Origin: Acetivibrio ethanolgignens | GTDB lineage: Bacteria > Bacillota > Clostridia > Lachnospirales > Lachnospiraceae | Assembly (NCBI RefSeq): GCF_001461035.1 | Contig: NZ_LNAM01000024.1 | Location: 16,145 to 56,144, forward strand | Length of the DNA: 40,000 nt | Reading direction: 5' to 3' | Shown here: piece after piece, positions 1,886 through 16,552 of the stretch | Numbering within the stretch: the first letter of the stretch is position 1 | How the letters are laid out: each line of letters begins with the position of its first letter | Made by a program: the position numbers and the translations under genes | Notes under the pieces: generated by a model | Told to the model about the DNA's origin: nothing | The model's database searches: none | What the model saw: only the letters and a program-made list of their open reading frames with translations

Positions 1886-3316
1886 ATGCTTCGTACAAGA
1901 AAAGATAAAAAAATTATTCATGCAATTGTTCACATGCAGCCCGTAGAGAGGCAGAATGGCTCTCGGGAGCTTTTGGAAGTTCATGAAAGACTGATGAAGG
2001 GAAGAAAATCCTTTGAGGAGGTTGTTAGCAATACGCTTACTTCAGCAATGGGAATGAGTGCCTTGGATTTGCAGGTGAGTGACCGGGTGGAAGAACTCCA
2101 GAATATCAGCAGTGACTTATCTGTGCTGACCGGTGACTTAAAGGAAACCTCCAGACAGACGACGGAGATTACAAATGAGGTTTCCAAATCTCATGAGATG
2201 TTATCAGCTTCCATTGCAGAAATTTCCTCCAATACAGCAGATAGCTTAGAGGAAATTGAAAAAAGCCAGAAAAATATTGAAAACATTAAAGGCTTGTCCC
2301 ATCAGGCCTCCGAAGACTCTAAAAAAATGCAGGCAGATATGGCAGCGCTGATGTCAGTAATTGACCAGATGCAGACGGTAATTGCAAATATTAATGCAAT
2401 TTCCGGCCAGACCAATCTGCTTGCTTTGAATGCCTCTATAGAGGCAGCCAGAGCGGGTGAGGCCGGGGCAGGCTTTGCTGTCGTTGCAGATGAAATCCGT
2501 CAGCTGGCTGATGAAACAAAGGCACTGACAGACAATATGGGGAAATTTGTAGGAGATATCCAGGCAGCCTCCAGCCAGAGTGTTGAGAGTGTGGAGACAA
2601 CAGTAAAGGCATTGGAGCAGATAAACGATAACCTTACTGTTGTAGTTGAGGTAAATACAGATAACCGTGAACGTTTGAAAGAGATAAATGAAAGCCTTAC
2701 CAATATTGCTGCTACAGGTGAGGAAATCAGCAGCTCCATGAATGATGTGGGTAGCCATATCAGTTATTTGGATCAAAGACTGGAGGGACTTAATGCGGAT
2801 GCAAAGAACCTGGATCAGGTGAGTCAGCAGCTGTCCAAGGTAATAGCACCAATGTGTGCGATTGAAGATAATCTGAAAAATACGGCCCAGAGAATGGGGA
2901 AAATGGCACATGACACCTTCTATATGCCAGATAATGCCATGTTTATAGAAAACGTAAATAAGGCCGTTGAGGCACATAAGAACTGGTTGAAAACACTGGA
3001 TAAGATGATTTGTAATGAAAAAGCGCAGCCGCTGCAGACAAATGAGCATAAATGTGGATTTGGACATTTTTACTATGCAGTTGAGCCAAAGAATAAGGAG
3101 ATTCAGGCTATATGGAAAGGAATTGAAGGAAAGCACAAGCAGCTACATGGTTATGGAGCCCAGGCGATTACTGCATTGAAGCATGGCAATCCAGAGGAGG
3201 CGAGAACTGCTTATAAAAAGTCAGAGGATATTTCGAAGACCCTTCTGGCTGATTTTGATACGATAATTAAGCTGTCTCAGAAGCTGGACAAGGAGGGTAT
3301 CCGGGTATTTGAGTAA
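1886..3316 (+). CDS. Soluble methyl-accepting chemotaxis protein with C-terminal CZB (chemoreceptor zinc-binding) domain
   Basis: 476 aa. Highly conserved MCP signalling hairpin [37 protein letters not shown]. No TM segments. The C-terminus carries the CZB signature H-x2-W...C-G-F-G-H-F...H-x3-H (HKNWLKTL...[10 protein letters not shown]...GKHKQLH). Confidence 0.9.
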
Positions 3317-3354: not shown

Positions 3355-5277
3355 GTGGAATATAATATCTGGTTTGATATATCTGGAATCCTTGTTCTGA
3401 TGGTAATTTTAATCAGTTTTTACATAGAAAATAACGTTCCGGTTATCCAGTACCAGTATTTCAAGAGGATGGTATGGATCGTGCTGCTGTCTGTAATTGC
3501 CGATTTGCTGATAGGCTTGTGGGGAAATCACCTTACTCAGGTGACAGCCGTATTTCCGATAGAGGTATCCGAGATACTCCATGTTGTTTATTTTGCTACG
3601 AAAAATGCGACACCACCGGCTTTTTTGCTTTATGTCCTCTCTGTTATGAATATCAGGGAAAAAACGATAAAGGGAATTTTAATACTTCTGATACCAGCAG
3701 CGATAGTAGAGGCTTTGATTTTTTTCAGCCCAGTAACAAACCTGATTTTTTATATTGATTCTGCTGGTGCGTATCATCGTGGACCGGCTCTTCCCTTTGC
3801 TTATGTAATTGCCGGTGCCTATATGGTATTTACCTTGGCACTTATGATTACATACCATAAGCTGGCTTCTGCGTTTCAGAGTGGAACTTTTGGAATCTTT
3901 ATTATGATGGCAATAATTACGGTTATTTTACAGGGCATTTTTCCAACATTTCTGGTAGAAGGATTTGGAATGGCAATTGGCTTACTGGCATGTTCTTTGG
4001 CGATTCAGAAGCCGGAGGAGATACTGGATGGTGCCACTGGTTTTTTAAATAAAAAGGTTTTTTCAGATTTGTGCAGGGCAAGATTTAAGGAAAAATCATC
4101 CTTTGCCGTACTGGTGATTGTTCTTGAAAATTATGATATCCTAGAGAAATCTTATGGGATTAATAATATTGAAAAGCTGGTATCAGAGGTGGCCGTTTAC
4201 CTTAAACGGTTTCAGGGGATTAGAGGCTGTCGGATAAGTGAGGATAAATTCTGCCTTTTGGAAAACAAGGCAGATGTTAAGACACTGGAGGATGCTATTG
4301 AACTGATAGACAGGCGATTCAAAAATGCCTGGAAGGTATCTGAATACAACGTAGTATTAGAAAGCTGCTGCTGTATGATACATTGTCCCCAGGATGCTTC
4401 TGATTTTCAGGAGCTTATGGATTTGATCGGAGCTGTCGCAAATCTCGGAAGAGAAGAGAATAGACATCTTATCCAGCTAAAGGAAATAGATTTGGAAGCG
4501 TTTTTCAGGCAGTGCAAAATTGAGAAGCTGGTAAAAGAAGCGGTGGAGAGGAATCTTTTGGAGGTTGTGTACCAGCCGATTTATTCTCCCAAAAAGAATC
4601 GTTTTTCTTCTGCAGAGGCATTGATACGGATGCGGGATGAAGAGCTTGGCAATATTTCTCCGGCAGAATTTATCCCGATTGCAGAGAAAAATGGTGCCAT
4701 AATAAAAATAGGAAAATATGTAATGGATACCGTATGCCGGTTTATGGCAGAGCATGATTTGAAAAAATATGGAATTGAGTATATTGAGGTAAATGTGTCT
4801 GCGGTAGAGTGCATGCAGGAGGACATGGTAGAGTGTGTGATGCATCATATCGCCTGTCATGACCTGGAGCCCAGACAGATTAATCTTGAAATTACAGAAA
4901 CAGCAATCAGCATTTTACCGGAAAGTATAAATGAGAAGATGGAACGTCTTTTGAAGGAAGGGGTTACCTTTTCTCTGGATGACTATGGCACTGGATATTC
5001 TAATTTAAGCCGTCTGGCAGCACTTCCGATAGAAATTGTTAAAGTTGATAAGACGATTGTACAGGCAGCCTTCGAGTCTGAAAAAATGAAAGTGATTTTG
5101 GATAATACCCTTGAGATGCTTGGCGGGCTGAAACGAAAGGTGCTTGTAGAGGGGGTAGAAAAAAAGGAACAGGCTGATTATTTGATTGAAAAGGGCTGTG
5201 ATTATATTCAAGGCTATTATTATGCAAAGCCAATGTCAGCAGATGATTTTTTAAAGCTCATAGAGAAACAAGTATAA
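3355..5277 (+). CDS. Membrane-bound c-di-GMP phosphodiesterase (multi-TM N-terminus, degenerate GGDEF, EAL domain)
   Basis: 640 aa, GTG start. About 6 hydrophobic helices. The middle domain lacks GG(D/E)EF (RISEDKF in its place). EAL motifs present: EVVYQPIY, EITE, DDYGTGYSNL, KVDK, EGVE, QGYYYAKP. Confidence 0.9.
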   Translation: MEYNIWFDISGILVLMVILISFYIENNVPVIQYQYFKRMVWIVLLSVIADLLIGLWGNHLTQVTAVFPIEVSEILHVVYFATKNATPPAFLLYVLSVMNIREKTIKGILILLIPAAIVEALIFFSPVTNLIFYIDSAGAYHRGPALPFAYVIAGAYMVFTLALMITYHKLASAFQSGTFGIFIMMAIITVILQGIFPTFLVEGFGMAIGLLACSLAIQKPEEILDGATGFLNKKVFSDLCRARFKEKSSFAVLVIVLENYDILEKSYGINNIEKLVSEVAVYLKRFQGIRGCRISEDKFCLLENKADVKTLEDAIELIDRRFKNAWKVSEYNVVLESCCCMIHCPQDASDFQELMDLIGAVANLGREENRHLIQLKEIDLEAFFRQCKIEKLVKEAVERNLLEVVYQPIYSPKKNRFSSAEALIRMRDEELGNISPAEFIPIAEKNGAIIKIGKYVMDTVCRFMAEHDLKKYGIEYIEVNVSAVECMQEDMVECVMHHIACHDLEPRQINLEITETAISILPESINEKMERLLKEGVTFSLDDYGTGYSNLSRLAALPIEIVKVDKTIVQAAFESEKMKVILDNTLEMLGGLKRKVLVEGVEKKEQADYLIEKGCDYIQGYYYAKPMSADDFLKLIEKQV

Positions 5278-5321: not shown

Positions 5322-5762
5322 TTAAGACTTCTGGCAGTCACAGGCAGCAGGCTTTACATCAAAACCAGGATTGAAGGCATAGAAATTCTTGAAATTCAAG
5401 TCATCCTGGACTCTTCGGAGAGCTTCGCCGAAACGCTGGAAATGAACCAGTTCTCTCTGGCGGAGGAAGCGGATTGGGTCGCAGACTTCAGGATCCTTTA
5501 CCAGCCGGAGAATATTGTCATAGGTGGAGCGTGCCTTTTGCTCGGCAGCCAAATCCTCAACCAGGTCGGTGATAGCATCACCCTTGGACTGGAATTCACA
5601 GGCATTAAACGGAATGCCTCCGGCAGCCTGCGGCCATAGACCGACCGTATGGTCAACATAGTAGTTTGCAAAGCCGGTGTTTTCGATTTCCTCCGGCGTC
5701 AGGTCGCGAGTCAGCTGGTGAACGATGGTAGATATCATTTCCATGTGTGCCAGCTCATTAGC
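5322..5762 (-). pseudogene. Manganese catalase (CotJC family), 3' fragment only, truncated by prophage insertion
   Basis: Translation ...ANELAHMEMISTIVHQLTRDLTPEEI...AAEQKARSTYD...IRFLRQRELVHFQRF matches the region of Mn catalases/CotJC starting at the TEE(F/L)AH(L/M)EMI metal-binding helix. The roughly 65-70 N-terminal residues are missing. The frame is closed by TGA/TAA at 5763-5768. Confidence 0.85.
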
Positions 5763-5782: not shown

Positions 5783-7426
5783 CTATAACAATAACTTTAC
5801 ATTAATTTCAAACGGTGTTTCCGACCAATTGCCGCCTGCTTTCAGCTTAACATCCTTCTGTGTATCTTTTTTTAATCTTTGTGACTGTTCTCTCCTGTAT
5901 TCAATTCTGCTAATACAGTTTTTTAATAACTGATTCTTTTTCTGTGCAGATGCATCAGGATTTCTTAGTGCGGAAAGAGCATCTTTAAATTTTATGATTT
6001 TTTCTTCATAAGAAATTGGCTCTGGCATTGATGCATAAGCTTCTCGTAAGGAATTTTGAACTTCTTCTTTCTCCTTTAAAAGTTTTTCATTGAGTTGCTT
6101 AAATATCTCTTGTGGCATTCTATTTGAAGGGTCAGGGTCAGCCTGTGCCTCCCACTGTGCTAGTTCCTTAGCTTGCAAATCTTGGAGCTTTTTTTCAAGG
6201 TGTTTTATTATGTCTGCTTGAATTTTAGCAGAGTCCTTACCATCATTTCTAAGTAAAATTTCAAAATCATGAATAGAATCTTCCAGAACTTCACATACCT
6301 TTTCTATTAATTCATCGTATAAGCAAGAGGTTGTGTGGCAATACTTTTGTCCATCGCATAATAGTCTTGGAGAGCAGCGTTCGCTTCCATCTGAATTTTT
6401 ATAGAATCTCAAAGACATTGCTCTGCCGCAGCTACAATATAAAAGACCTGCCAGTGGATTTCTGATTTTGGTTTTTGCCTTTGCTCTATGATTTCTGCCT
6501 TGCTTTTCCTGTGCGGCTTCAAAGAGTTCTTCAGAAATTATAGCTTTATGCCGGCCTTCATAGATTAGGAACTCTCCCATGCGTGCCTTAGGCCTTGTCT
6601 TAATAATTTCACTGTCCTCGACGACAGTTACAGTTTTTCTCCAGTTCCATTTTACCTTTCCGATATAATGTATATTTTCAAGCATATCTTTCAGAGCGGC
6701 AGGGGACCAGTGTATACCTTTAGGCGGTTTGATTCCCATATCGTCCAAATAATTACATATACTGGCCCTTCTCATGTCTTTATTTACATATAATTCAAAA
6801 ATCATACGGATAACGTCGGCTTGCTCAGGATTTTCAACCAGGGTAGGACATTTCCTTTTCCCATCCAGAATAAAGGCTTTATCATAGCCATATGGAGGAA
6901 CAGAACCGATATAATTGCCCTGACTGACTGAAAGTAGTCTGCCTCTGCTCAATATCTTTTTGGTGTACTCCAGATAATCATTTCCGCGTTTTAACTCTCT
7001 TTCAAAGGCATCCCAGTCATATTCATCCTGCAAATCATAAATCCTTTGTGGAGTGATAATTAGGGTGTGAGTATGTTTAAAAAGCTTCATTAGCCGACCA
7101 ATGTCCTCTAAATCACCTCTTGTCAGACGTTGAGGCTCTACAATGCATACAGCTTTGATTTTAGGAGATTCTATCTGCCTGAGTACTTTATTGATTTCTG
7201 GTCTTTCCTTTAATGTTTCCCCAGAAACAACTTCTCTATATTTATTTTCCTCCGGTATCTTTTCACCAAGGCTTTTTTCTGCCCATTCATCCAAAATAGT
7301 TTCATGTTTCTCCAAGACTTCTTCAACAGACAGCATAGGATCATCAGAACGGGATTTCCTCAAATATACAATTATTTCATCTTTTTTTAGGTTTTCTAAA
7401 TTATATTTCATAAATTCATAGTTCAT
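5783..7426 (-). CDS. Large serine recombinase (phage integrase)
   Basis: 547 aa. N-terminal resolvase domain with catalytic Ser context IIVYLRKSRSDDP. Recombinase domain (VPPYGYD, VENPEQADVIRMIFELY). Cys-rich zinc ribbon (LLYCSCGRAMSL...CDGQKYCHTTSC). C-terminal coiled coil. Confidence 0.95.
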   Translation of the reverse strand: MNYEFMKYNLENLKKDEIIVYLRKSRSDDPMLSVEEVLEKHETILDEWAEKSLGEKIPEENKYREVVSGETLKERPEINKVLRQIESPKIKAVCIVEPQRLTRGDLEDIGRLMKLFKHTHTLIITPQRIYDLQDEYDWDAFERELKRGNDYLEYTKKILSRGRLLSVSQGNYIGSVPPYGYDKAFILDGKRKCPTLVENPEQADVIRMIFELYVNKDMRRASICNYLDDMGIKPPKGIHWSPAALKDMLENIHYIGKVKWNWRKTVTVVEDSEIIKTRPKARMGEFLIYEGRHKAIISEELFEAAQEKQGRNHRAKAKTKIRNPLAGLLYCSCGRAMSLRFYKNSDGSERCSPRLLCDGQKYCHTTSCLYDELIEKVCEVLEDSIHDFEILLRNDGKDSAKIQADIIKHLEKKLQDLQAKELAQWEAQADPDPSNRMPQEIFKQLNEKLLKEKEEVQNSLREAYASMPEPISYEEKIIKFKDALSALRNPDASAQKKNQLLKNCISRIEYRREQSQRLKKDTQKDVKLKAGGNWSETPFEINVKLLL

Positions 7427-7499
7427 ATTACCACTCCTATCTTAAAATTTATGAAAAATAGTATAAAAAATACACCTACTTGCCAGAACAGGTGCAGGA

Positions 7500-7538
7500 G
7501 TGATATAATATGACTTGTCTAGGGAGATATTATATCAC
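7500..7538. promoter_or_regulatory. Perfect 12-bp inverted repeat upstream of the integrase gene
   Basis: GTGATATAATAT (7500-7511) and ATATTATATCAC (7527-7538), separated by 15 nt. Each arm contains TATAAT on one strand. It lies 74-112 nt upstream of the integrase ATG. Confidence 0.35.
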
Positions 7539-7568
7539 TTTGGCTTGTCCGGTATAGTATCTATAAAA

Positions 7569-7603
7569 GCCGTTTCTGTTGGTAGCAGAGGCGGTTTTTA
7601 TTT
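7569..7603. terminator. Hairpin plus T-run immediately downstream of the Abi gene
   Basis: GCCGTTTCTG (7569-7578) / CAGAGGCGGT (7586-7595). The pairing includes G-U pairs on the plus strand and two mismatches on the minus strand. Flanked by T-runs on both strands. Located directly after the stop codon at 7604. Confidence 0.45.
7579..7599. repeat. Cassette boundary repeat R2, copy a (TTGGTAGCAGAGGCGGTTTTT)
   Basis: 20 of 21 identical to 9182-9202. Lies directly downstream of the Abi gene stop. Confidence 0.8.
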
Positions 7604-8617
7604 TTATAAAAATCTACGCTCAAAGAGGTTATTTAGGCGAGAAAATAAGTCATTTGGAAATCCAAATACTTCAAAAACATTTTTAGTGTTAAAATGAGTA
7701 TCTTGATTAGCATAAGGAGAAAGAAGCGAATACAATTCTTCATAAAAATTTCGTAAGACATATTGGTCATTTAATAAAATGTTAAGAGCAAGCAATACAG
7801 CCATAACATCGTTTTGCCCCATCTTAGAATTATATTCTTCTTCTATAATTGTATTAAAACTAAGTGTCAATAGCTGCTTTTTAGGAAGTTGCGGTAGGTT
7901 TAATGCACTAAATGTTCTATTTCCATGTGCAATTTTGTTTCTATATTCTTTAGTAAGTTCAAGAGATTTTCTCATAAATTCTTTAGTTTCTTCAATAGTA
8001 AGGATGCCAGAAGAAATAAAAGAATTACAAATAGACTCTTTATCACAGCTTTTCAGTATGTTATACCATTCAATAGTTAAACCATAAGAAAGATTTGTAA
8101 TTAAAATCCAAGCTGGAATATGATTACGATGGTTAATGTAGTGCTGCATACTTGGATTATTTCTTGACTGGTGAATACTTTCTTTTAAACCAATCAGGAT
8201 ATTGATACGTTTTCTATTGGAGTTTGTATAATTGCTTTTGCATAAATAGTCACTAGGGTTAGAGAAACTTCTGTCACTGGCGTCTGTAAATACACCATAT
8301 TTTTCTGATACCAGATATGATATTCTTGATTTTAAAGCTTTTTCTAAATACAAAATATACTTAAAAATTATGCTGTTTAAAGATACATCCAAAAGATGGA
8401 GTGTATATAACTCTTCAAATTTAGTACCATTAATAAAATCATCGGAATCTGGAATTTGAAGAAATGTATTTTTGTATGCATTAATTAACCCATAGTAAGA
8501 AAGATTTTGCAGAGCAGTTATCGCAAACTCCTTGTCTTCAACAATGATATTACGACTTTCCATAAGCGCAATCATTTGTTCATATGTTTTGAATGGTTTA
8601 TCATATGTGTTGTTCAA
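7604..8617 (-). CDS. Abi_2 family (AbiD/AbiF-like) abortive-infection protein
   Basis: Motifs DKPFKTYEQMIALMESRNIIV, LSYYGLINAYKNTF, FEELYTLHLLDVSLNSIIFKYILYLEKALKSRISY and NKIAHGNRTF match the Abi_2 family as I remember it. Preferred start is TTG at 8617, 9 nt after GGAAGGAGGG. The tracked ORF extends to ATG 8758 but would run through a terminator-like hairpin and overlap the upstream gene. Confidence 0.85.
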   Translation of the reverse strand: MNNTYDKPFKTYEQMIALMESRNIIVEDKEFAITALQNLSYYGLINAYKNTFLQIPDSDDFINGTKFEELYTLHLLDVSLNSIIFKYILYLEKALKSRISYLVSEKYGVFTDASDRSFSNPSDYLCKSNYTNSNRKRINILIGLKESIHQSRNNPSMQHYINHRNHIPAWILITNLSYGLTIEWYNILKSCDKESICNSFISSGILTIEETKEFMRKSLELTKEYRNKIAHGNRTFSALNLPQLPKKQLLTLSFNTIIEEEYNSKMGQNDVMAVLLALNILLNDQYVLRNFYEELYSLLSPYANQDTHFNTKNVFEVFGFPNDLFSRLNNLFERRFL

Positions 8618-8622
8618 AAGAA

Positions 8623-8711
8623 AAAAACCCTCCTTCCAAAACTGGTAAGAGGGTTTTTCGCTAGTCATCTCAACAACGACCATTTCTGTTGAGATAATCT
8701 TACCAGTTTTG
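8623..8711 (-). promoter_or_regulatory. Structured RNA leader (nested helices plus terminator-like hairpin that includes the RBS) between the small ORF and the Abi gene
   Basis: On the minus-strand RNA: P1 is CAAAACUGGUAAGA (8711-8698) with UCUUACCAGUUUUG (8650-8637), 14 bp perfect. P2 is AUCUCAACA (8695-8687) with UGUUGAGAU (8675-8667), 9 bp. The terminator-like stem is AAAAACCCUC (8658-8649) with GAGGGUUUUU (8632-8623), followed by UUCUUUUG. The P1 3' strand lies in the terminator loop. Confidence 0.5.
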
Positions 8712-8721
8712 AGATATAATG

Positions 8722-9135
8722 TCAAGCTAATTTTATAGGGTCTCCAATTTTTATACATACATTTTCAGGCGTTAATTTTTGGATATCATCACGGTTTATA
8801 TTTAATGGAACTGCTACCTTTCTTGTGGTTTCCAAAAGAGGCGATAAAGCCGCTGCGGTAGAGGAAGAAGTTTTTTCCATTAGAGGTTTTTGGCACACGG
8901 AAAAGGTTTTTTCTGTACGAATAACTTCCAACTCATCTTTGCAAAAGATATAACGCTCAAGTGGTGTACCATCGAGATCTAAGATTTCTTCGCCAATCTC
9001 ATAGACTTGTACGATATCACCTATTTTTAAAACGCCTCTGCCGGCATTTACAATAATGGTTCGGCTGTCAATAATACGAATGACATTTGCAATATAATAA
9101 GGACCATACTTCTTTTTCATTTCGTCTTTGTTCAT
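8722..9135 (-). CDS. Hypothetical 137-aa protein, first gene of the Abi operon (no domain recognised)
   Basis: ATG preceded by AAAGGAG at 9-nt spacing. No TM segment or HTH. Beta-rich-looking sequence with a repeated KIGD(I/P) element near the N- and C-termini, and a Ser/Thr/Ala linker (EKTSSSTAAALSPLLETT). Confidence 0.75.
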   Translation of the reverse strand: MNKDEMKKKYGPYYIANVIRIIDSRTIIVNAGRGVLKIGDIVQVYEIGEEILDLDGTPLERYIFCKDELEVIRTEKTFSVCQKPLMEKTSSSTAAALSPLLETTRKVAVPLNINRDDIQKLTPENVCIKIGDPIKLA

Positions 9136-9162
9136 TGTTAAAATCTCCTTTTATTTTACATT

Positions 9163-9202
9163 AATTCCATAACTCCTAAATTTGGTAGAAGAGGCGGTTT
9201 TT
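9163..9202. repeat. Abutting boundary repeats R1 copy a (9163-9181, AATTCCATAACTCCTAAAT) and R2 copy b (9182-9202)
   Basis: R1 is identical to 9858-9876. R2 is 20 of 21 identical to 7579-7599. The pair sits exactly between the two accessory cassettes. Confidence 0.8.
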
Positions 9203-9226: not shown

Positions 9227-9505
9227 CTAGCAATAATATTGAATTTCTCCAAAATAAGCAATCCATTTTTCAATAATTTCTGTACTCCTGGCTTCAATCA
9301 TTCTCATCATATTTCGAAGTGTTTTTTCTGGTATTTTAGAATTATTGTGGCAAAGATAACACTTACCCTTACGGGTAATCCATATTTTTGTTGCATTGCC
9401 GGAAGGATGCCCATTGGAAATATGGACATGTATCGGTTCAAGTGGCTTATTTTCATTTGTCCAAAAGTAAACCCAGTATGGACCAAACCTAAAGATTTGC
9501 GGCAC
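9227..9505 (-). CDS. DUF4160 domain protein
   Basis: GTG start at 9505 preceded by GGAAGGGGG. VPQIFRFGPYWVYFWTNENKPLEPIHVHISNG...ATKIWIT...EIIEKWIAYFGE matches the DUF4160 pattern (F-F-x-NE-x-PxHVHV...K-W...W-x-YF). The 156-aa tracked version would overlap the upstream gene. Confidence 0.8.
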   Translation of the reverse strand: MPQIFRFGPYWVYFWTNENKPLEPIHVHISNGHPSGNATKIWITRKGKCYLCHNNSKIPEKTLRNMMRMIEARSTEIIEKWIAYFGEIQYYC

Positions 9506-9761
9506 CTTGGAAGCCCCCTTCCTGTGAAAATTCCAAAATGAGATTGGCTGTTGATTCAATGATTTCCTGAATTTTTTTAATGTCATTTTGGGAGAATCCA
9601 TAAATATCTTCCCAAGTGTAATCAGGAAGCCAGCAGGTAGCATGTTTAAAACAGACTTTTTCGTCTGGCTTTTCAATATATACTTTGACGCGACCATCTG
9701 GTTTCATTTCAGAATGTACAATTTCGGTTTCATCATTTAGTGTCATAAATGGGTACATCAT
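9489..9761 (-). CDS. Hypothetical 90-aa protein, upstream partner of the DUF4160 gene
   Basis: ATG preceded by AAAAAGGAG. Its 3' end overlaps the DUF4160 GTG start by 17 nt, suggesting translational coupling. No domain recognised. Confidence 0.65.
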   Translation of the reverse strand: MMYPFMTLNDETEIVHSEMKPDGRVKVYIEKPDEKVCFKHATCWLPDYTWEDIYGFSQNDIKKIQEIIESTANLILEFSQEGGFQGAANL

Positions 9762-9893: not shown

Positions 9894-10613
9894 TTATTCT
9901 ACTTTGTCTAAAACTTTTCCAATAACTTTTACATTCTCTAAATTTTTGATATTTTTATATTCTTTATTAATGGAAATAAGCTCATTTTCACCCAATTCCT
10001 TTATATAACAATTATTTCCGTCAATAAATATTCCAATTTCGCCTACAGATAATTCAATTGTTTTCTTTACAAATACCTTATCTCCATCGTTATATACAGG
10101 CTTCATGCTATCCCCATTTACCCCAATAACAAAATCTGCGTTTCTTGATTTTTCGTTATCTTCAACTTCTATAAAATCAGTTGGAATATCACTGAATAAA
10201 TATTCTCCTGTTCCGGCAGATGCAAGTTTTTGATAGTAGCTGATTATTCTGGTCGGCTTTTCTTCTTTTTTGGATTTCATTCTTTCTGTTTCCCATTGGA
10301 GAATGGTATTAACGTGTTCTTGACCAATAGGGTCCAAATCTCTATATTTCTTTAATAATTCTTGTTCTCCGTATTTTAAAATGAATTTTGAGTCTGGATA
10401 TATTCCATAAATATCATTAATAGAAACATTCAATATTTCACAAACTTCAAATAGTATATCAATAGTAGGACAATTTGCTCCAGTTTCCCAATTAGATATT
10501 CTAGAAGGAACAACACCTAATCTTTTTGCTAATTCTTTTTGGCTAAGACCAGCCTGTTCTCTATATTTACCAATATTTTTAGAAATATTTTTTTTGATTG
10601 TATCGTCACTCAT
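9894..10613 (-). CDS. CI-like prophage repressor (XRE HTH plus S24 LexA-type peptidase domain)
   Basis: 239 aa. N-terminal HTH LSQKELAKRLGVVPSRISNWETG. C-terminal S24 motifs GVNGDSMKP...GDKVFVKK. Divergent from a Cro-like gene. Confidence 0.95.
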   Translation of the reverse strand: MSDDTIKKNISKNIGKYREQAGLSQKELAKRLGVVPSRISNWETGANCPTIDILFEVCEILNVSINDIYGIYPDSKFILKYGEQELLKKYRDLDPIGQEHVNTILQWETERMKSKKEEKPTRIISYYQKLASAGTGEYLFSDIPTDFIEVEDNEKSRNADFVIGVNGDSMKPVYNDGDKVFVKKTIELSVGEIGIFIDGNNCYIKELGENELISINKEYKNIKNLENVKVIGKVLDKVE

Positions 10614-15129: not shown

Positions 15130-16552
15130 TGTAAAAATCAAAATTAGAAATTTATTCGGAATAAAAGAGTATGAAGCAAATGGAAACAGCGTAGAGCTTT
15201 CCGGGAAAAATGGAGTCGGAAAAACATCAGTTATTGATGCCATCCGCTATGCACTTACCAATAAGAGTGACCGCAACTATGTTGTTAGAAACGGAGAGAC
15301 CGAGGGAGAGATCCTGATTGAGACAGATAATGGCATTCGCATTAATCGAAAAGTCAGAACGTACCAGACAGACTATAAGAGTATTAAAAAGAACGGTGCA
15401 GAAGTGCCGGGACCGGAGGCTTTTTTAAGGGATATCTTTACTCCGCTGCAGCTAAATCCTGTTGGATTCATGTATATGGATGAAAAGAGGCAGAATGCTA
15501 CCATTCTTGACATGATTGAGTATGACTGGAATCTGGACACTATACGCGGATGGTTCGGAGAATTGCCGGACTGGGTATCTTATGACCAGAATATCCTTGC
15601 TATTCTCAATGATATACAGTCAGAAAAGGGGTATTACTTCCAGCACCGCCAGGATATTCAGAGGGATATTCGAAATAAGCGAGCATTCATTGAAGAAATC
15701 GGAGAAAGCCTTCCGGCTGGATACTGTGCGGATAACTGGGAAAACGCCAATGTTGGTGATTTATATACCAAAATAGAGACTATCCGTAATGAAAATGAGC
15801 TGATTGCAAAGGCAAAGCAGATGCTGGAAAACCGTGATAACAAAGTAAGAAAGTTCCAGGCAGACCGTGAAATATCTATTGCAGCTCTGGACAGAGAGAT
15901 GAGTGCTACAAAAGGCAGACTGCAGAATGAGATTACAAAGCTCCAGGAGCAGATGAAAGCTAAGGAAGCAGAATTAAATGGCCTTATGGACAAGAGAAGT
16001 GACAAACTTGCGGTAATCGAGGAGAAATACAAGGCTGACATTTCCAGATATGATGCAGAGGTAGAAAGCTACCGGGAGTATGCCGAAAGAGAACAGATGG
16101 ACTTCTCTGATTTGATGGAACAGGCTGCCTTAGTAGAAGAAATGAAGGGTTATATCAACGAGTACCGCCGCATGGAGAATCTGGAAGAGGAAGTGGAAGA
16201 GCTTTCACAGGAGGCGAGGGAGCTTACCAGAAAAATTGAACTTGCCAGGACACTTCCTGGTACTATTTTGGAAACGTCTACCATACCGATTGATGGCCTT
16301 ACTGTGAAAGATGGCATTCCTCTGATACATGGACTTCCTATAAGCAATCTTTCCGAAGGTGAGAAGCTTGATCTTTGCATTGACGTAGCTATCCAGAAGC
16401 CAAATGGCCTGCAGATTATTCTCATTGATGGTGTAGAAAAGCTTGCCACTAATTTAAGGGAAAAACTGTACCAGAAATGCAAAGATAAGGGGCTGCAGTT
16501 TATTGCTACCCGAACAACGGACGATGAGGATTTAACCGTAGTGGAATTATAG
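15122..16552 (+). CDS. SMC/Rad50-like AAA ATPase of the recombination module
   Basis: Walker A GKNGVGKTSVIDAIRYAL, long central coiled coil, and C-terminal signature/Walker B region (LSEGEKLDL...IILIDGVE). ATG 15122 is preferred over 15110. Confidence 0.85.
   Translation: MNIVKIKIRNLFGIKEYEANGNSVELSGKNGVGKTSVIDAIRYALTNKSDRNYVVRNGETEGEILIETDNGIRINRKVRTYQTDYKSIKKNGAEVPGPEAFLRDIFTPLQLNPVGFMYMDEKRQNATILDMIEYDWNLDTIRGWFGELPDWVSYDQNILAILNDIQSEKGYYFQHRQDIQRDIRNKRAFIEEIGESLPAGYCADNWENANVGDLYTKIETIRNENELIAKAKQMLENRDNKVRKFQADREISIAALDREMSATKGRLQNEITKLQEQMKAKEAELNGLMDKRSDKLAVIEEKYKADISRYDAEVESYREYAEREQMDFSDLMEQAALVEEMKGYINEYRRMENLEEEVEELSQEARELTRKIELARTLPGTILETSTIPIDGLTVKDGIPLIHGLPISNLSEGEKLDLCIDVAIQKPNGLQIILIDGVEKLATNLREKLYQKCKDKGLQFIATRTTDDEDLTVVEL

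Follow-up and report, generated by a model that had tools for sequence, protein, structure and literature searches.

The element described here is a two-gene unit on the minus strand of contig NZ_LNAM01000024.1 of Acetivibrio ethanolgignens, of which positions 16,145 to 56,144 (40,000 nt, referred to as the window; coordinates are those of the window) were analysed. The unit consists of a gene for a 137-aa protein (gene 1), a spacer and a gene of the Abi_2 family. The same arrangement was found in more than 80 independent loci and is therefore not due to chance. The locus is probably a prophage-borne type III toxin-antitoxin (TA) module of the AbiD/F type, i.e., an abortive infection system, which carries an additional clade-specific protein and an alternative RNA pairing (helix P0) in the leader of the toxin gene. 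The features of the unit are as follows.

8722-9135, minus strand: gene 1, 137 aa, ATG start, predicted acidic beta-barrel (open reading frame (ORF), AlphaFold2)
8618-8721, minus strand: spacer between gene 1 and Abi_2, 104 nt
8697-8725, minus strand: predicted promoter of a non-coding RNA (ncRNA), -35 box TTGACA at 8725-8720, 17-nt spacer, extended -10 box TGgTAAGAT at 8705-8697 (promoter scan)
8698-8711, minus strand: 5' strand of helix P0, CAAAACUGGUAAGA, over the -10 box (inverted repeat I5)
8621-8690, minus strand: predicted ncRNA of about 70 nt, candidate antitoxin similar to AbiFr and RCd22 (start from promoter geometry, end at the T-run)
8662-8682, minus strand: predicted P1 hairpin of the ncRNA, 8682-8675 pairing with 8669-8662 (RNAalifold)
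8621-8658, minus strand: predicted intrinsic terminator, arms 8658-8643 and 8638-8623, 16 bp, then a T-run (inverted repeat I4)
8637-8650, minus strand: 3' strand of helix P0, UCUUACCAGUUUUG, inner 5' arm and loop of the terminator
7604-8617, minus strand: Abi_2 (AbiD-F family) HEPN ribonuclease (RNase) toxin, 337 aa, TTG start (Pfam, PADLOC, PHROG)

The second gene had been recognised as Abi_2 by the initial annotation from its sequence hallmarks. The check by hidden Markov model (HMM) proposed there bore this out with Pfam PF07751 (E 1.4e-33), and matches to PADLOC AbiD (E 4.6e-44) and PHROG 2158, 'abortive infection resistance protein' (E 9e-68), were also found. Translation is predicted to start at the in-frame TTG at 8617, located 10 nt after GGAGGG; alignments with homologues open at residues 1-5. 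The HEPN motif RNKIAH, which contains the catalytic Rx4H signature, is intact, and R225, N226 and H230 are invariant among 25 homologues. Abi_2 shows homology to PbAbiF (chain 8vz6_A, E 1.2e-7) and is, judged by its sequence, an intact HEPN protein. The toxin is of the Abi_2/HEPN kind and not an endoribonuclease of the ToxN/AbiQ fold that characterises classical type III TA systems.

The spacer was initially annotated as an intercistronic leader of about 100 nt of structured RNA with a terminator-like hairpin. The structured RNA was recovered: the 104 nt fold more stably than shuffled controls (z -3.7 to -5.6) and contain the 16-bp hairpin with its T-run. The description as a mere leader did not stand, because the spacer holds its own conserved promoter (TTGACA-17-TG-n-TAAGAT). 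On sequence and comparative evidence it is a small RNA gene, located in cis upstream of the toxin gene and provided with a near-consensus sigma-A promoter and an intrinsic terminator, and so goes beyond an operon leader. When aligned in 13 and then in about 50 loci, the DNA of the spacer was conserved above the level of the flanking genes. The geometry of -35 box, 17-nt spacer and -10 box is kept in these approximately 50 diverged loci while the sequence of the 17 nt varies, and the -10 box reads TAAGAT in the window and TATAAT, TATTAT, TACTAT and similar in distant relatives, a variation that is the behaviour of a sigma-A promoter at the sequence level. The -35 box overlaps the TGA stop codon of gene 1 (8724-8722); the stop codon lies within the -35 hexamer in 18 of 41 loci, with a median gap of 1 nt. 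A scan with a DNA pattern composed of the promoter and AAATGG returned five loci only, most of them unrelated.

Downstream of the promoter the order ARAAAUGG, P1, CUAGCGAAAA and terminator is conserved across loci. A hairpin of -14 to -27 kcal/mol followed by a T-tract was present in all 41 loci examined, and the start codon of Abi_2 follows the T-run by 3-12 nt across loci; the Shine-Dalgarno sequence of Abi_2 (GGAGGG, 8633-8628) is located within the 3' arm of the terminator. A covariance model built from 35 leaders (R1) was applied to 538 kb; its matches lie directly before Abi_2 in over 50 loci, with practically none at other positions. Compensatory changes were observed in 8 of 8 pairs of P1 (95% of cells paired) and in 11 of 11 pairs of the terminator. 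On the R1 alignment, P1 and terminator together had 89% of cells paired and compensatory changes in 19 of 19 pairs. Their covariation score was 0.58, as compared to 0.25 in shuffles (none of 500 reached 0.58) and 0.10-0.18 for slid partners; the alignment behind this score was fitted to R1, and an independent run of MAFFT and RNAalifold had already given the covariation of P1. A leader peptide was ruled out as an explanation of the spacer, since its reading frames are not the same from locus to locus and the covariation of P1 is that of an RNA.

No tandem repeats were detected between 7500 and 9300, and each leader has a single P1 motif, so that a repeat antitoxin as in ToxIN is not present. 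The Rfam abiF motif (RF03085) gave no match in the window when 4 kb were searched with E <= 1 or 151 nt with E <= 10, and was absent from 20 related loci at gathering score; the same model does detect phiC2. Searches of the leader with all Rfam families gave terminator-like noise only (ctRNA_p42d, PyrG leader). As the consensus sequences of RF03085 and of the window leader are unrelated, the latter represents a distinct class of AbiF-associated RNA. Upstream RNAs have also been described for AbiD and AbiD1, and the RF03085 motif consequently defines a subclass and not the whole system.

Several leaders show individual additions. In the window, a private hairpin (8695-8665, minus strand, UAUCUCAACAG...UUGUUGAGAUGA) competes with P1 in the read-through fold and is not kept in relatives. 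The leader of L047, a viral contig, has an extra hairpin between promoter and P1; on the same contig the module of gene 1 and Abi_2 is flanked by two group I introns (1721-1962 and 4061-4332), both of which exceed the gathering score of Rfam. A second, weaker match to the leader model was found in L063 (4672-4772), approximately 0.7 kb downstream of the first Abi_2 and followed by a second Abi_2-like ORF, from which it follows that Abi_2 modules can be tandemly duplicated, as also noted previously (PMC12373285). In Streptococcus phage Javan597 (L103), a match to the S. pyogenes small RNA family Spy779816 (3003-3088, minus strand; 75.9 bits, above gathering score) lies between the integrase and the Abi_2 operon.

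A second pairing involves the terminator. In the window, P0 consists of 14 nt of perfect complementarity between 8711-8698 and 8650-8637, and P0 and the terminator are mutually exclusive. Once the 5' arm of the terminator has emerged, the nascent read-through RNA adopts P0 as its fold of minimum free energy (z -5.6). The pairing recurs with other sequences in other loci: CATGATAAGA / TCTTATCATG in L003, CAATGTAAGA / TCTTACATTG in L041, AAAGCAGTAA / TTACTGCTTT in L035, AATTAACTCA / TGAGTTAATT in L091, and TTACTTAG / CTAAGTAA in L094. The idea of one column-wise P0 helix shared by all members of the family was dropped, because the 5' strand slides by a few nt relative to the -10 box between subgroups; for this reason duplex energies were used instead of pair counting. 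The -10 segment was paired with the downstream region of matched and mismatched loci in a set of 34 non-redundant loci. The mean energy was -15.9 kcal/mol with the terminator region of the same locus and -9.3 kcal/mol with mismatched loci, and the own terminator was the best partner among the 34 in 20 cases (permutation p < 5e-5). The similarity of the -10 region to the terminator could be a by-product of TAAGAT resembling the ribosome-binding site TAAGGAGG, or a direct repeat; both were ruled out, as the match is locus-specific and reaches the terminator loop. The loop cannot pair with the 3' arm, and P0 is therefore not a side effect of a 3' arm that resembles the -10 box.

P0 was also seen by eye in three of four loci read that lack gene 1 (L072, L069 and L090; L087 was ambiguous), which assigns P0 to the leader and not to gene 1. 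Its 5' strand is located at or upstream of the predicted transcription start, so that RNA started internally would lack this strand, and RNA from the internal promoter is predicted to fold into the terminator only. From the covariation we infer, with moderate confidence, that P0 is an anti-terminator for transcripts initiated upstream.

Gene 1 has a good ribosome-binding site, as initially annotated (AAAGGAGA, 8 nt upstream of the start). The description of its product as beta-rich, with an S/T/A linker and duplicated KIGD elements, agrees with the AlphaFold2 model (predicted local distance difference test score 84), which shows a small beta-barrel with the C-terminal IxxGDxVK strand as its closing strand; the linker (residues 88-102) is disordered in the model, and both elements (LKIGDIVQV and IKIGDPIKL) are present. 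The absence of a recognisable domain was borne out as well, with no family assigned from Pfam, NCBIfam (sub-threshold noise only in these two) or PADLOC-DB v2. The sole curated match was phrog_27728, 'unknown function'. A sequence profile search of the PDB found nothing, and Foldseek searches of PDB and BFVD returned weak similarities to FlgT-like barrels and to the N-terminal barrels of ATPases or HerA, with template-modelling (TM) scores of 0.35-0.53 and 9-25% identity. The structural search suggested by the initial annotation yielded a barrel fold, and no functional relative.

A total of 58 close homologues of gene 1 were collected, and the family comprises 1,059 clusters at 50% identity (E <= 1e-3). 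Among the best 150 of the 1,059 clusters, the homologues are stand-alone proteins with lengths mostly of about 125-145 aa and at most 191 aa, and no fusion with Abi_2 was found. The family is acidic, with a median isoelectric point of about 5; such a composition makes RNA binding less likely and would suit a contact with a basic protein surface. The ratio of non-synonymous to synonymous substitution rates is 0.08-0.36, a comparative estimate which indicates that gene 1 is under purifying selection. By these sequence comparisons, gene 1 represents an uncharacterised family and is a clade-specific accessory of the Abi_2 module.

The linkage of the two genes was determined from both sides. Anchored on gene 1, the synteny check proposed in the initial annotation placed Abi_2 directly downstream in 45 of 47 informative loci, within about 110-170 nt (genome loci 9/9, informative viral loci 4/4, informative metagenome loci 32/34, two of the 32 with Abi_2 remnants). 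Anchored on Abi_2, an HMM search showed that almost all loci of one large clade have gene 1 directly upstream, including those in which Abi_2 identity is as low as 26%. Among the members of this clade are the Streptococcus Javan phages, Lactobacillus phage iA2 and Staphylococcus phage phi575, in which gene 1 is annotated as hypothetical. Gene 1 was never found in the remaining Abi_2 clades, phiC2 included, and was absent from plasmid Abi_2 records with the exception of an iA2-like record. The distances of gene 1 and Abi_2 are correlated (Mantel r 0.79, p 5e-4). Gene 1 has, as far as the sequences tell, co-diverged with one large prophage clade of Abi_2 and is not universal in the family.

Gene 1 could also be an unrelated prophage moron, e.g., an exclusion or host-modifying protein, that hitch-hikes with the AbiF cassette by contiguity. 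The limited distribution of gene 1 and its orphan lineage fit this explanation, as do the absence of any detected domain or fold that would connect gene 1 with the biology of RNA or RNases and the zero-length gap to the promoter, which limits recombination. Against it, the two genes stay adjacent in prophages of Lachnospiraceae, Streptococcus, Lactobacillus and Staphylococcus despite changes in the flanking genes; the sequence upstream of gene 1 is not conserved and holds varied genes of the lysogeny module. The persistence of the linkage down to the lowest Abi_2 identities, the low number of loci that have gene 1 without Abi_2 (2 of 47), and the purifying selection on gene 1 also speak against an accidental passenger. 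Hitch-hiking is considered not very likely, but it is a serious rival because the two elements are physically joined.

The opposite explanation is that of the initial annotation, in which the two genes form an operon, the 137-aa protein is an obligatory antitoxin or sensor, and the spacer is a mere attenuator that sets the ratio of the two proteins. The strong synteny and co-divergence, the common strand and tight spacing, and the possibility that an acidic protein masks the basic RNA groove of the HEPN dimer would suit such a partner. The obligatory role was not upheld: the same leader class, with its conserved consensus promoter, is found before Abi_2 genes that lack gene 1, plasmid Abi_2 loci occur without gene 1, and the AbiF systems of plasmids and of C. 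difficile function with the RNA alone (PMC12373285). With a promoter and a terminator between the genes, and with loci that have the same leader and no gene 1, the unit is also not a type II TA system, in which a universal protein partner is coupled to the toxin without such elements in between. An obligatory protein partner is regarded as improbable.

The preferred reading, that of an AbiF-type module with RNA antitoxin, can be given in three parts. The core, a type III TA module of the AbiF type carried as a moron in the lysogeny module, is proposed with high confidence. By analogy to AbiFCd/RCd22, PbAbiF/AbiFr and lactococcal abiD1, the internal promoter would deliver large amounts of an RNA of about 70 nt with its end at the terminator, and this RNA would bind and silence the RNase; rare read-through would provide the toxin mRNA, and loss of the labile RNA during infection would free the RNase. 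The type III-like layout envisaged in the initial annotation, with a terminator that sets the ratio of RNA to toxin, is supported in this respect, although it has already been described.

The second part is the regulatory logic, held with moderate confidence: the internal promoter serves the antitoxin, and toxin mRNA arises via read-through, preferentially from P0-forming transcripts that come through gene 1. Since the 5' strand of P0 is contained only in RNA started upstream, only these transcripts could form the anti-terminator, read through and expose the ribosome-binding site. Toxin and gene 1 protein would then be made together from transcripts of the lysogeny module, and the internal promoter would give antitoxin only.

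The third part, the role of gene 1, is the weakest step and is stated with low confidence. The preferred guess is that its product modulates the RNase at the protein level, by inhibition or as an adaptor for a trigger, and may in this way fit the module to life in a prophage, e.g., by avoiding self-abortion upon induction. More specifically, gene 1 may be a true third component of a prophage-specific AbiF system, made from anti-terminated transcripts only and binding the AbiF RNase or its ribonucleoprotein, as a second antitoxin or as a sensor-adaptor for infection or induction, so that the module reads the origin of transcription; this is put forward as a possible but doubtful extension.

Two further explanations concern the RNA. 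The leader could be purely cis-regulatory, an attenuator similar to a riboswitch or thermosensor as proposed for the translation initiation region of abiD1, with no antitoxin acting in trans. The sequestered ribosome-binding site in the terminator stem and the single-copy RNA without repeat array would agree with this, and translation of abiD1 is activated by a phage protein and by cold (PMC2661086). It is nevertheless judged unlikely, as RCd22 and AbiFr bind their toxins and act in trans (PMC12373285; PMC12737573), the conserved single-stranded ARAAAUGG and CUAGCGAAAA around P1 resemble a protein-recognition motif, and the strong independent promoter is best explained by the need for an excess of RNA. 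Similarly low is the probability that P0 is a processing site at which RNase III or AbiF itself excises the ncRNA from read-through transcripts, with no anti-terminator involved: P0 (10-14 bp) does bracket the ncRNA core and AbiF was reported to process its cognate ncRNA (PMC12737573), but the sharing of the P0 3' strand with the 5' arm of the terminator is the classical anti-terminator arrangement, and the helix is short for RNase III.

A number of observations weigh against the AbiF-type reading with P0 and an accessory protein, or against parts of it. With regard to gene 1, one orphan lineage (L128/L129) has gene 1 without Abi_2, gene 1 has been lost in two sublineages within the clade, and gene 1 and the promoter are so close together that this alone would preserve the linkage. 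The lack of informative structural relatives (TM <= 0.53) and the acidity of the protein mean that no activity can be assigned to it, and the presence of P0 in loci without gene 1 gives no specific argument for a function of gene 1. With regard to the RNA, the full-length RNA of the window prefers the terminator fold (-35.7 kcal/mol), and P0 would need to act kinetically. The mismatch with RF03085, even at the most permissive threshold, leaves room for an RNA-protein recognition that may differ from the cases studied. The transcription start, the termination, the antitoxin activity and the toxicity are all predicted from sequence and analogy.

AbiF is one of the most abundant Abi families, and we know of no trigger of AbiF. 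The gene 1 family, with at least 1,000 clusters, occurs almost exclusively with one AbiF clade, in prophages of Firmicutes from gut and mouth, and is a candidate for a missing regulator or sensor. The leader would represent an AbiF-associated RNA class that is missed by current Rfam models, and an anti-terminator strand beneath the antitoxin promoter suggests that toxin output is set by the origin of transcription. If gene 1 is irrelevant, the locus is an ordinary AbiF type III TA module.

The unit lies between integrase and CI repressor, as initially annotated. The order on the minus strand is CI-like repressor, 90-aa ORF and DUF4160 gene, gene 1, spacer, Abi_2 and terminator, with the serine integrase last. 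The reported AT-richness was also found, with a G+C content of 0.29-0.31 over Abi_2 and 0.35-0.44 in the flanks. The flanking features are as follows.

9894-10613, minus strand: CI-like repressor with helix-turn-helix and S24 domains (domain matches)
9227-9761, minus strand: DUF4160 gene and 90-aa ORF, between gene 1 and CI
7563-7601, both strands: bidirectional terminator-like hairpin at the end of the module, 18 pairs and T-run (terminator scan)
5783-7426, minus strand: large serine integrase

The Pfam match to DUF4160 covers residues 74-145 of a 156-aa ORF that overlaps the 90-aa ORF; as the match is restricted to this part, the true start is probably internal. L023 has counterparts of the DUF4160 and 90-aa ORFs (55% and 71% identity) ahead of its gene 1 homologue. 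From their sequences, the two ORFs suggest a second small two-gene unit, which may be TA-like.

Direct repeats of 21 nt (TTGGTAG[C/A]AGAGGCGGTTTTT, 20 of 21 identical) at 7579-7599 and 9182-9202 exactly bracket the cassette of gene 1, ncRNA and Abi_2, and the downstream copy forms half of the terminator after Abi_2. As a general signature of mobility they were ruled out, with none found in six other loci; they are probably a local scar of cassette insertion or of terminator duplication. The interval between Abi_2 and the integrase contains a perfect 13-nt inverted repeat (7499-7511 and 7527-7539, AGTGATATAATAT / ATATTATATCACT) and a promoter-like site on the plus strand (7480-7509, 11/12), and may be the regulatory region of the integrase. 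A sub-threshold match of this interval (7465-7609, plus strand) to the Rfam L10_leader, with 33.6 bits against a gathering score of 44, is most likely due to chance. A 140-aa ORF (5322-5744, minus strand) adjoins the serine integrase and matches only positions 70-196 of the 284-position profile of manganese catalase. The prophage has probably integrated into a gene for a CotJC-like manganese catalase, the missing 5' part of which is expected at the other end of the prophage.

The architecture had initially been proposed as undescribed, and the lactococcal AbiD/AbiF prototypes had been taken as single-gene systems. Neither view agrees with the recent literature. AbiF is known as a type III TA toxin with an ncRNA encoded upstream in cis (PMC12373285; PMC13064643), and AbiD, AbiD1 and AbiF are now treated as protein-plus-RNA systems in a 2026 review (PMC13064643). 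AbiFCd of the C. difficile phages phi027 and phiC2 is toxic and is neutralised in cis and in trans by the ncRNA RCd22, which is encoded immediately before abiF with a sigma-A promoter and a terminator and binds AbiFCd directly (Saunier et al., PLoS Genet 2025, PMC12373285). The structure of PbAbiF with its ncRNA (PDB 8VZ6) and the position of AbiF at the root of Cas13 are attributed to Zilberzwige-Tal et al. (Cell 2025, as cited in PMC12373285, PMC12737573 and PMC13064643). The AbiF and ncRNA layout of a type III TA system has thus been known since 2025; the distinct ncRNA class, the anti-terminator under the antitoxin promoter and the large uncharacterised family tied to one AbiF clade appear new.

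Compared to AbiF-AbiFr and AbiFCd-RCd22, the module of the window shares the Abi_2/HEPN RNase with Rx4H motif, the succession of promoter, short structured ncRNA and terminator upstream of the toxin gene, and the location in a prophage. It differs in that its ncRNA belongs to another class of sequence and structure (RF03085 matches phiC2 and not the window leader) and has one motif instead of two, that the ribosome-binding site lies inside the terminator stem, that a putative anti-terminator strand covers the -10 box and a conserved protein gene abuts the promoter, and that the module is located in the lysogeny region between CI and integrase, whereas theirs are located in the lysis module.

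AbiD1 of pIL105 (Anba 1995; Bidnenko 2009, PMC2661086) belongs to the same protein family, and the sole abundant transcript of lactococcal abiD1 has a length of 50 nt and ends at a terminator that immediately precedes the gene (PMC2661086), similar to the short RNA predicted here. The full-length mRNA of abiD1 is scarce and arises from read-through, and the RNA structure in which its ribosome-binding site is embedded restricts its translation. In contrast to the module of the window, abiD1 is plasmid-borne, and its ribosome-binding site is located in a separate hairpin after the terminator. With the small closed beta-barrels of FlgT-like proteins and ATPase N-termini, gene 1 shares the general fold, but the similarity is weak (TM as given above), with no sequence relation and no shared context. 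ToxIN, AbiQ, CptIN and TenpIN have in common with the window the order of promoter, RNA antitoxin, terminator (which sets the ratio of antitoxin to toxin) and endoribonuclease toxin, as well as the association with abortive infection; unlike these systems, the window has a HEPN toxin that is not ToxN-like and a candidate antitoxin that consists of a single motif and not of a tandem repeat array.

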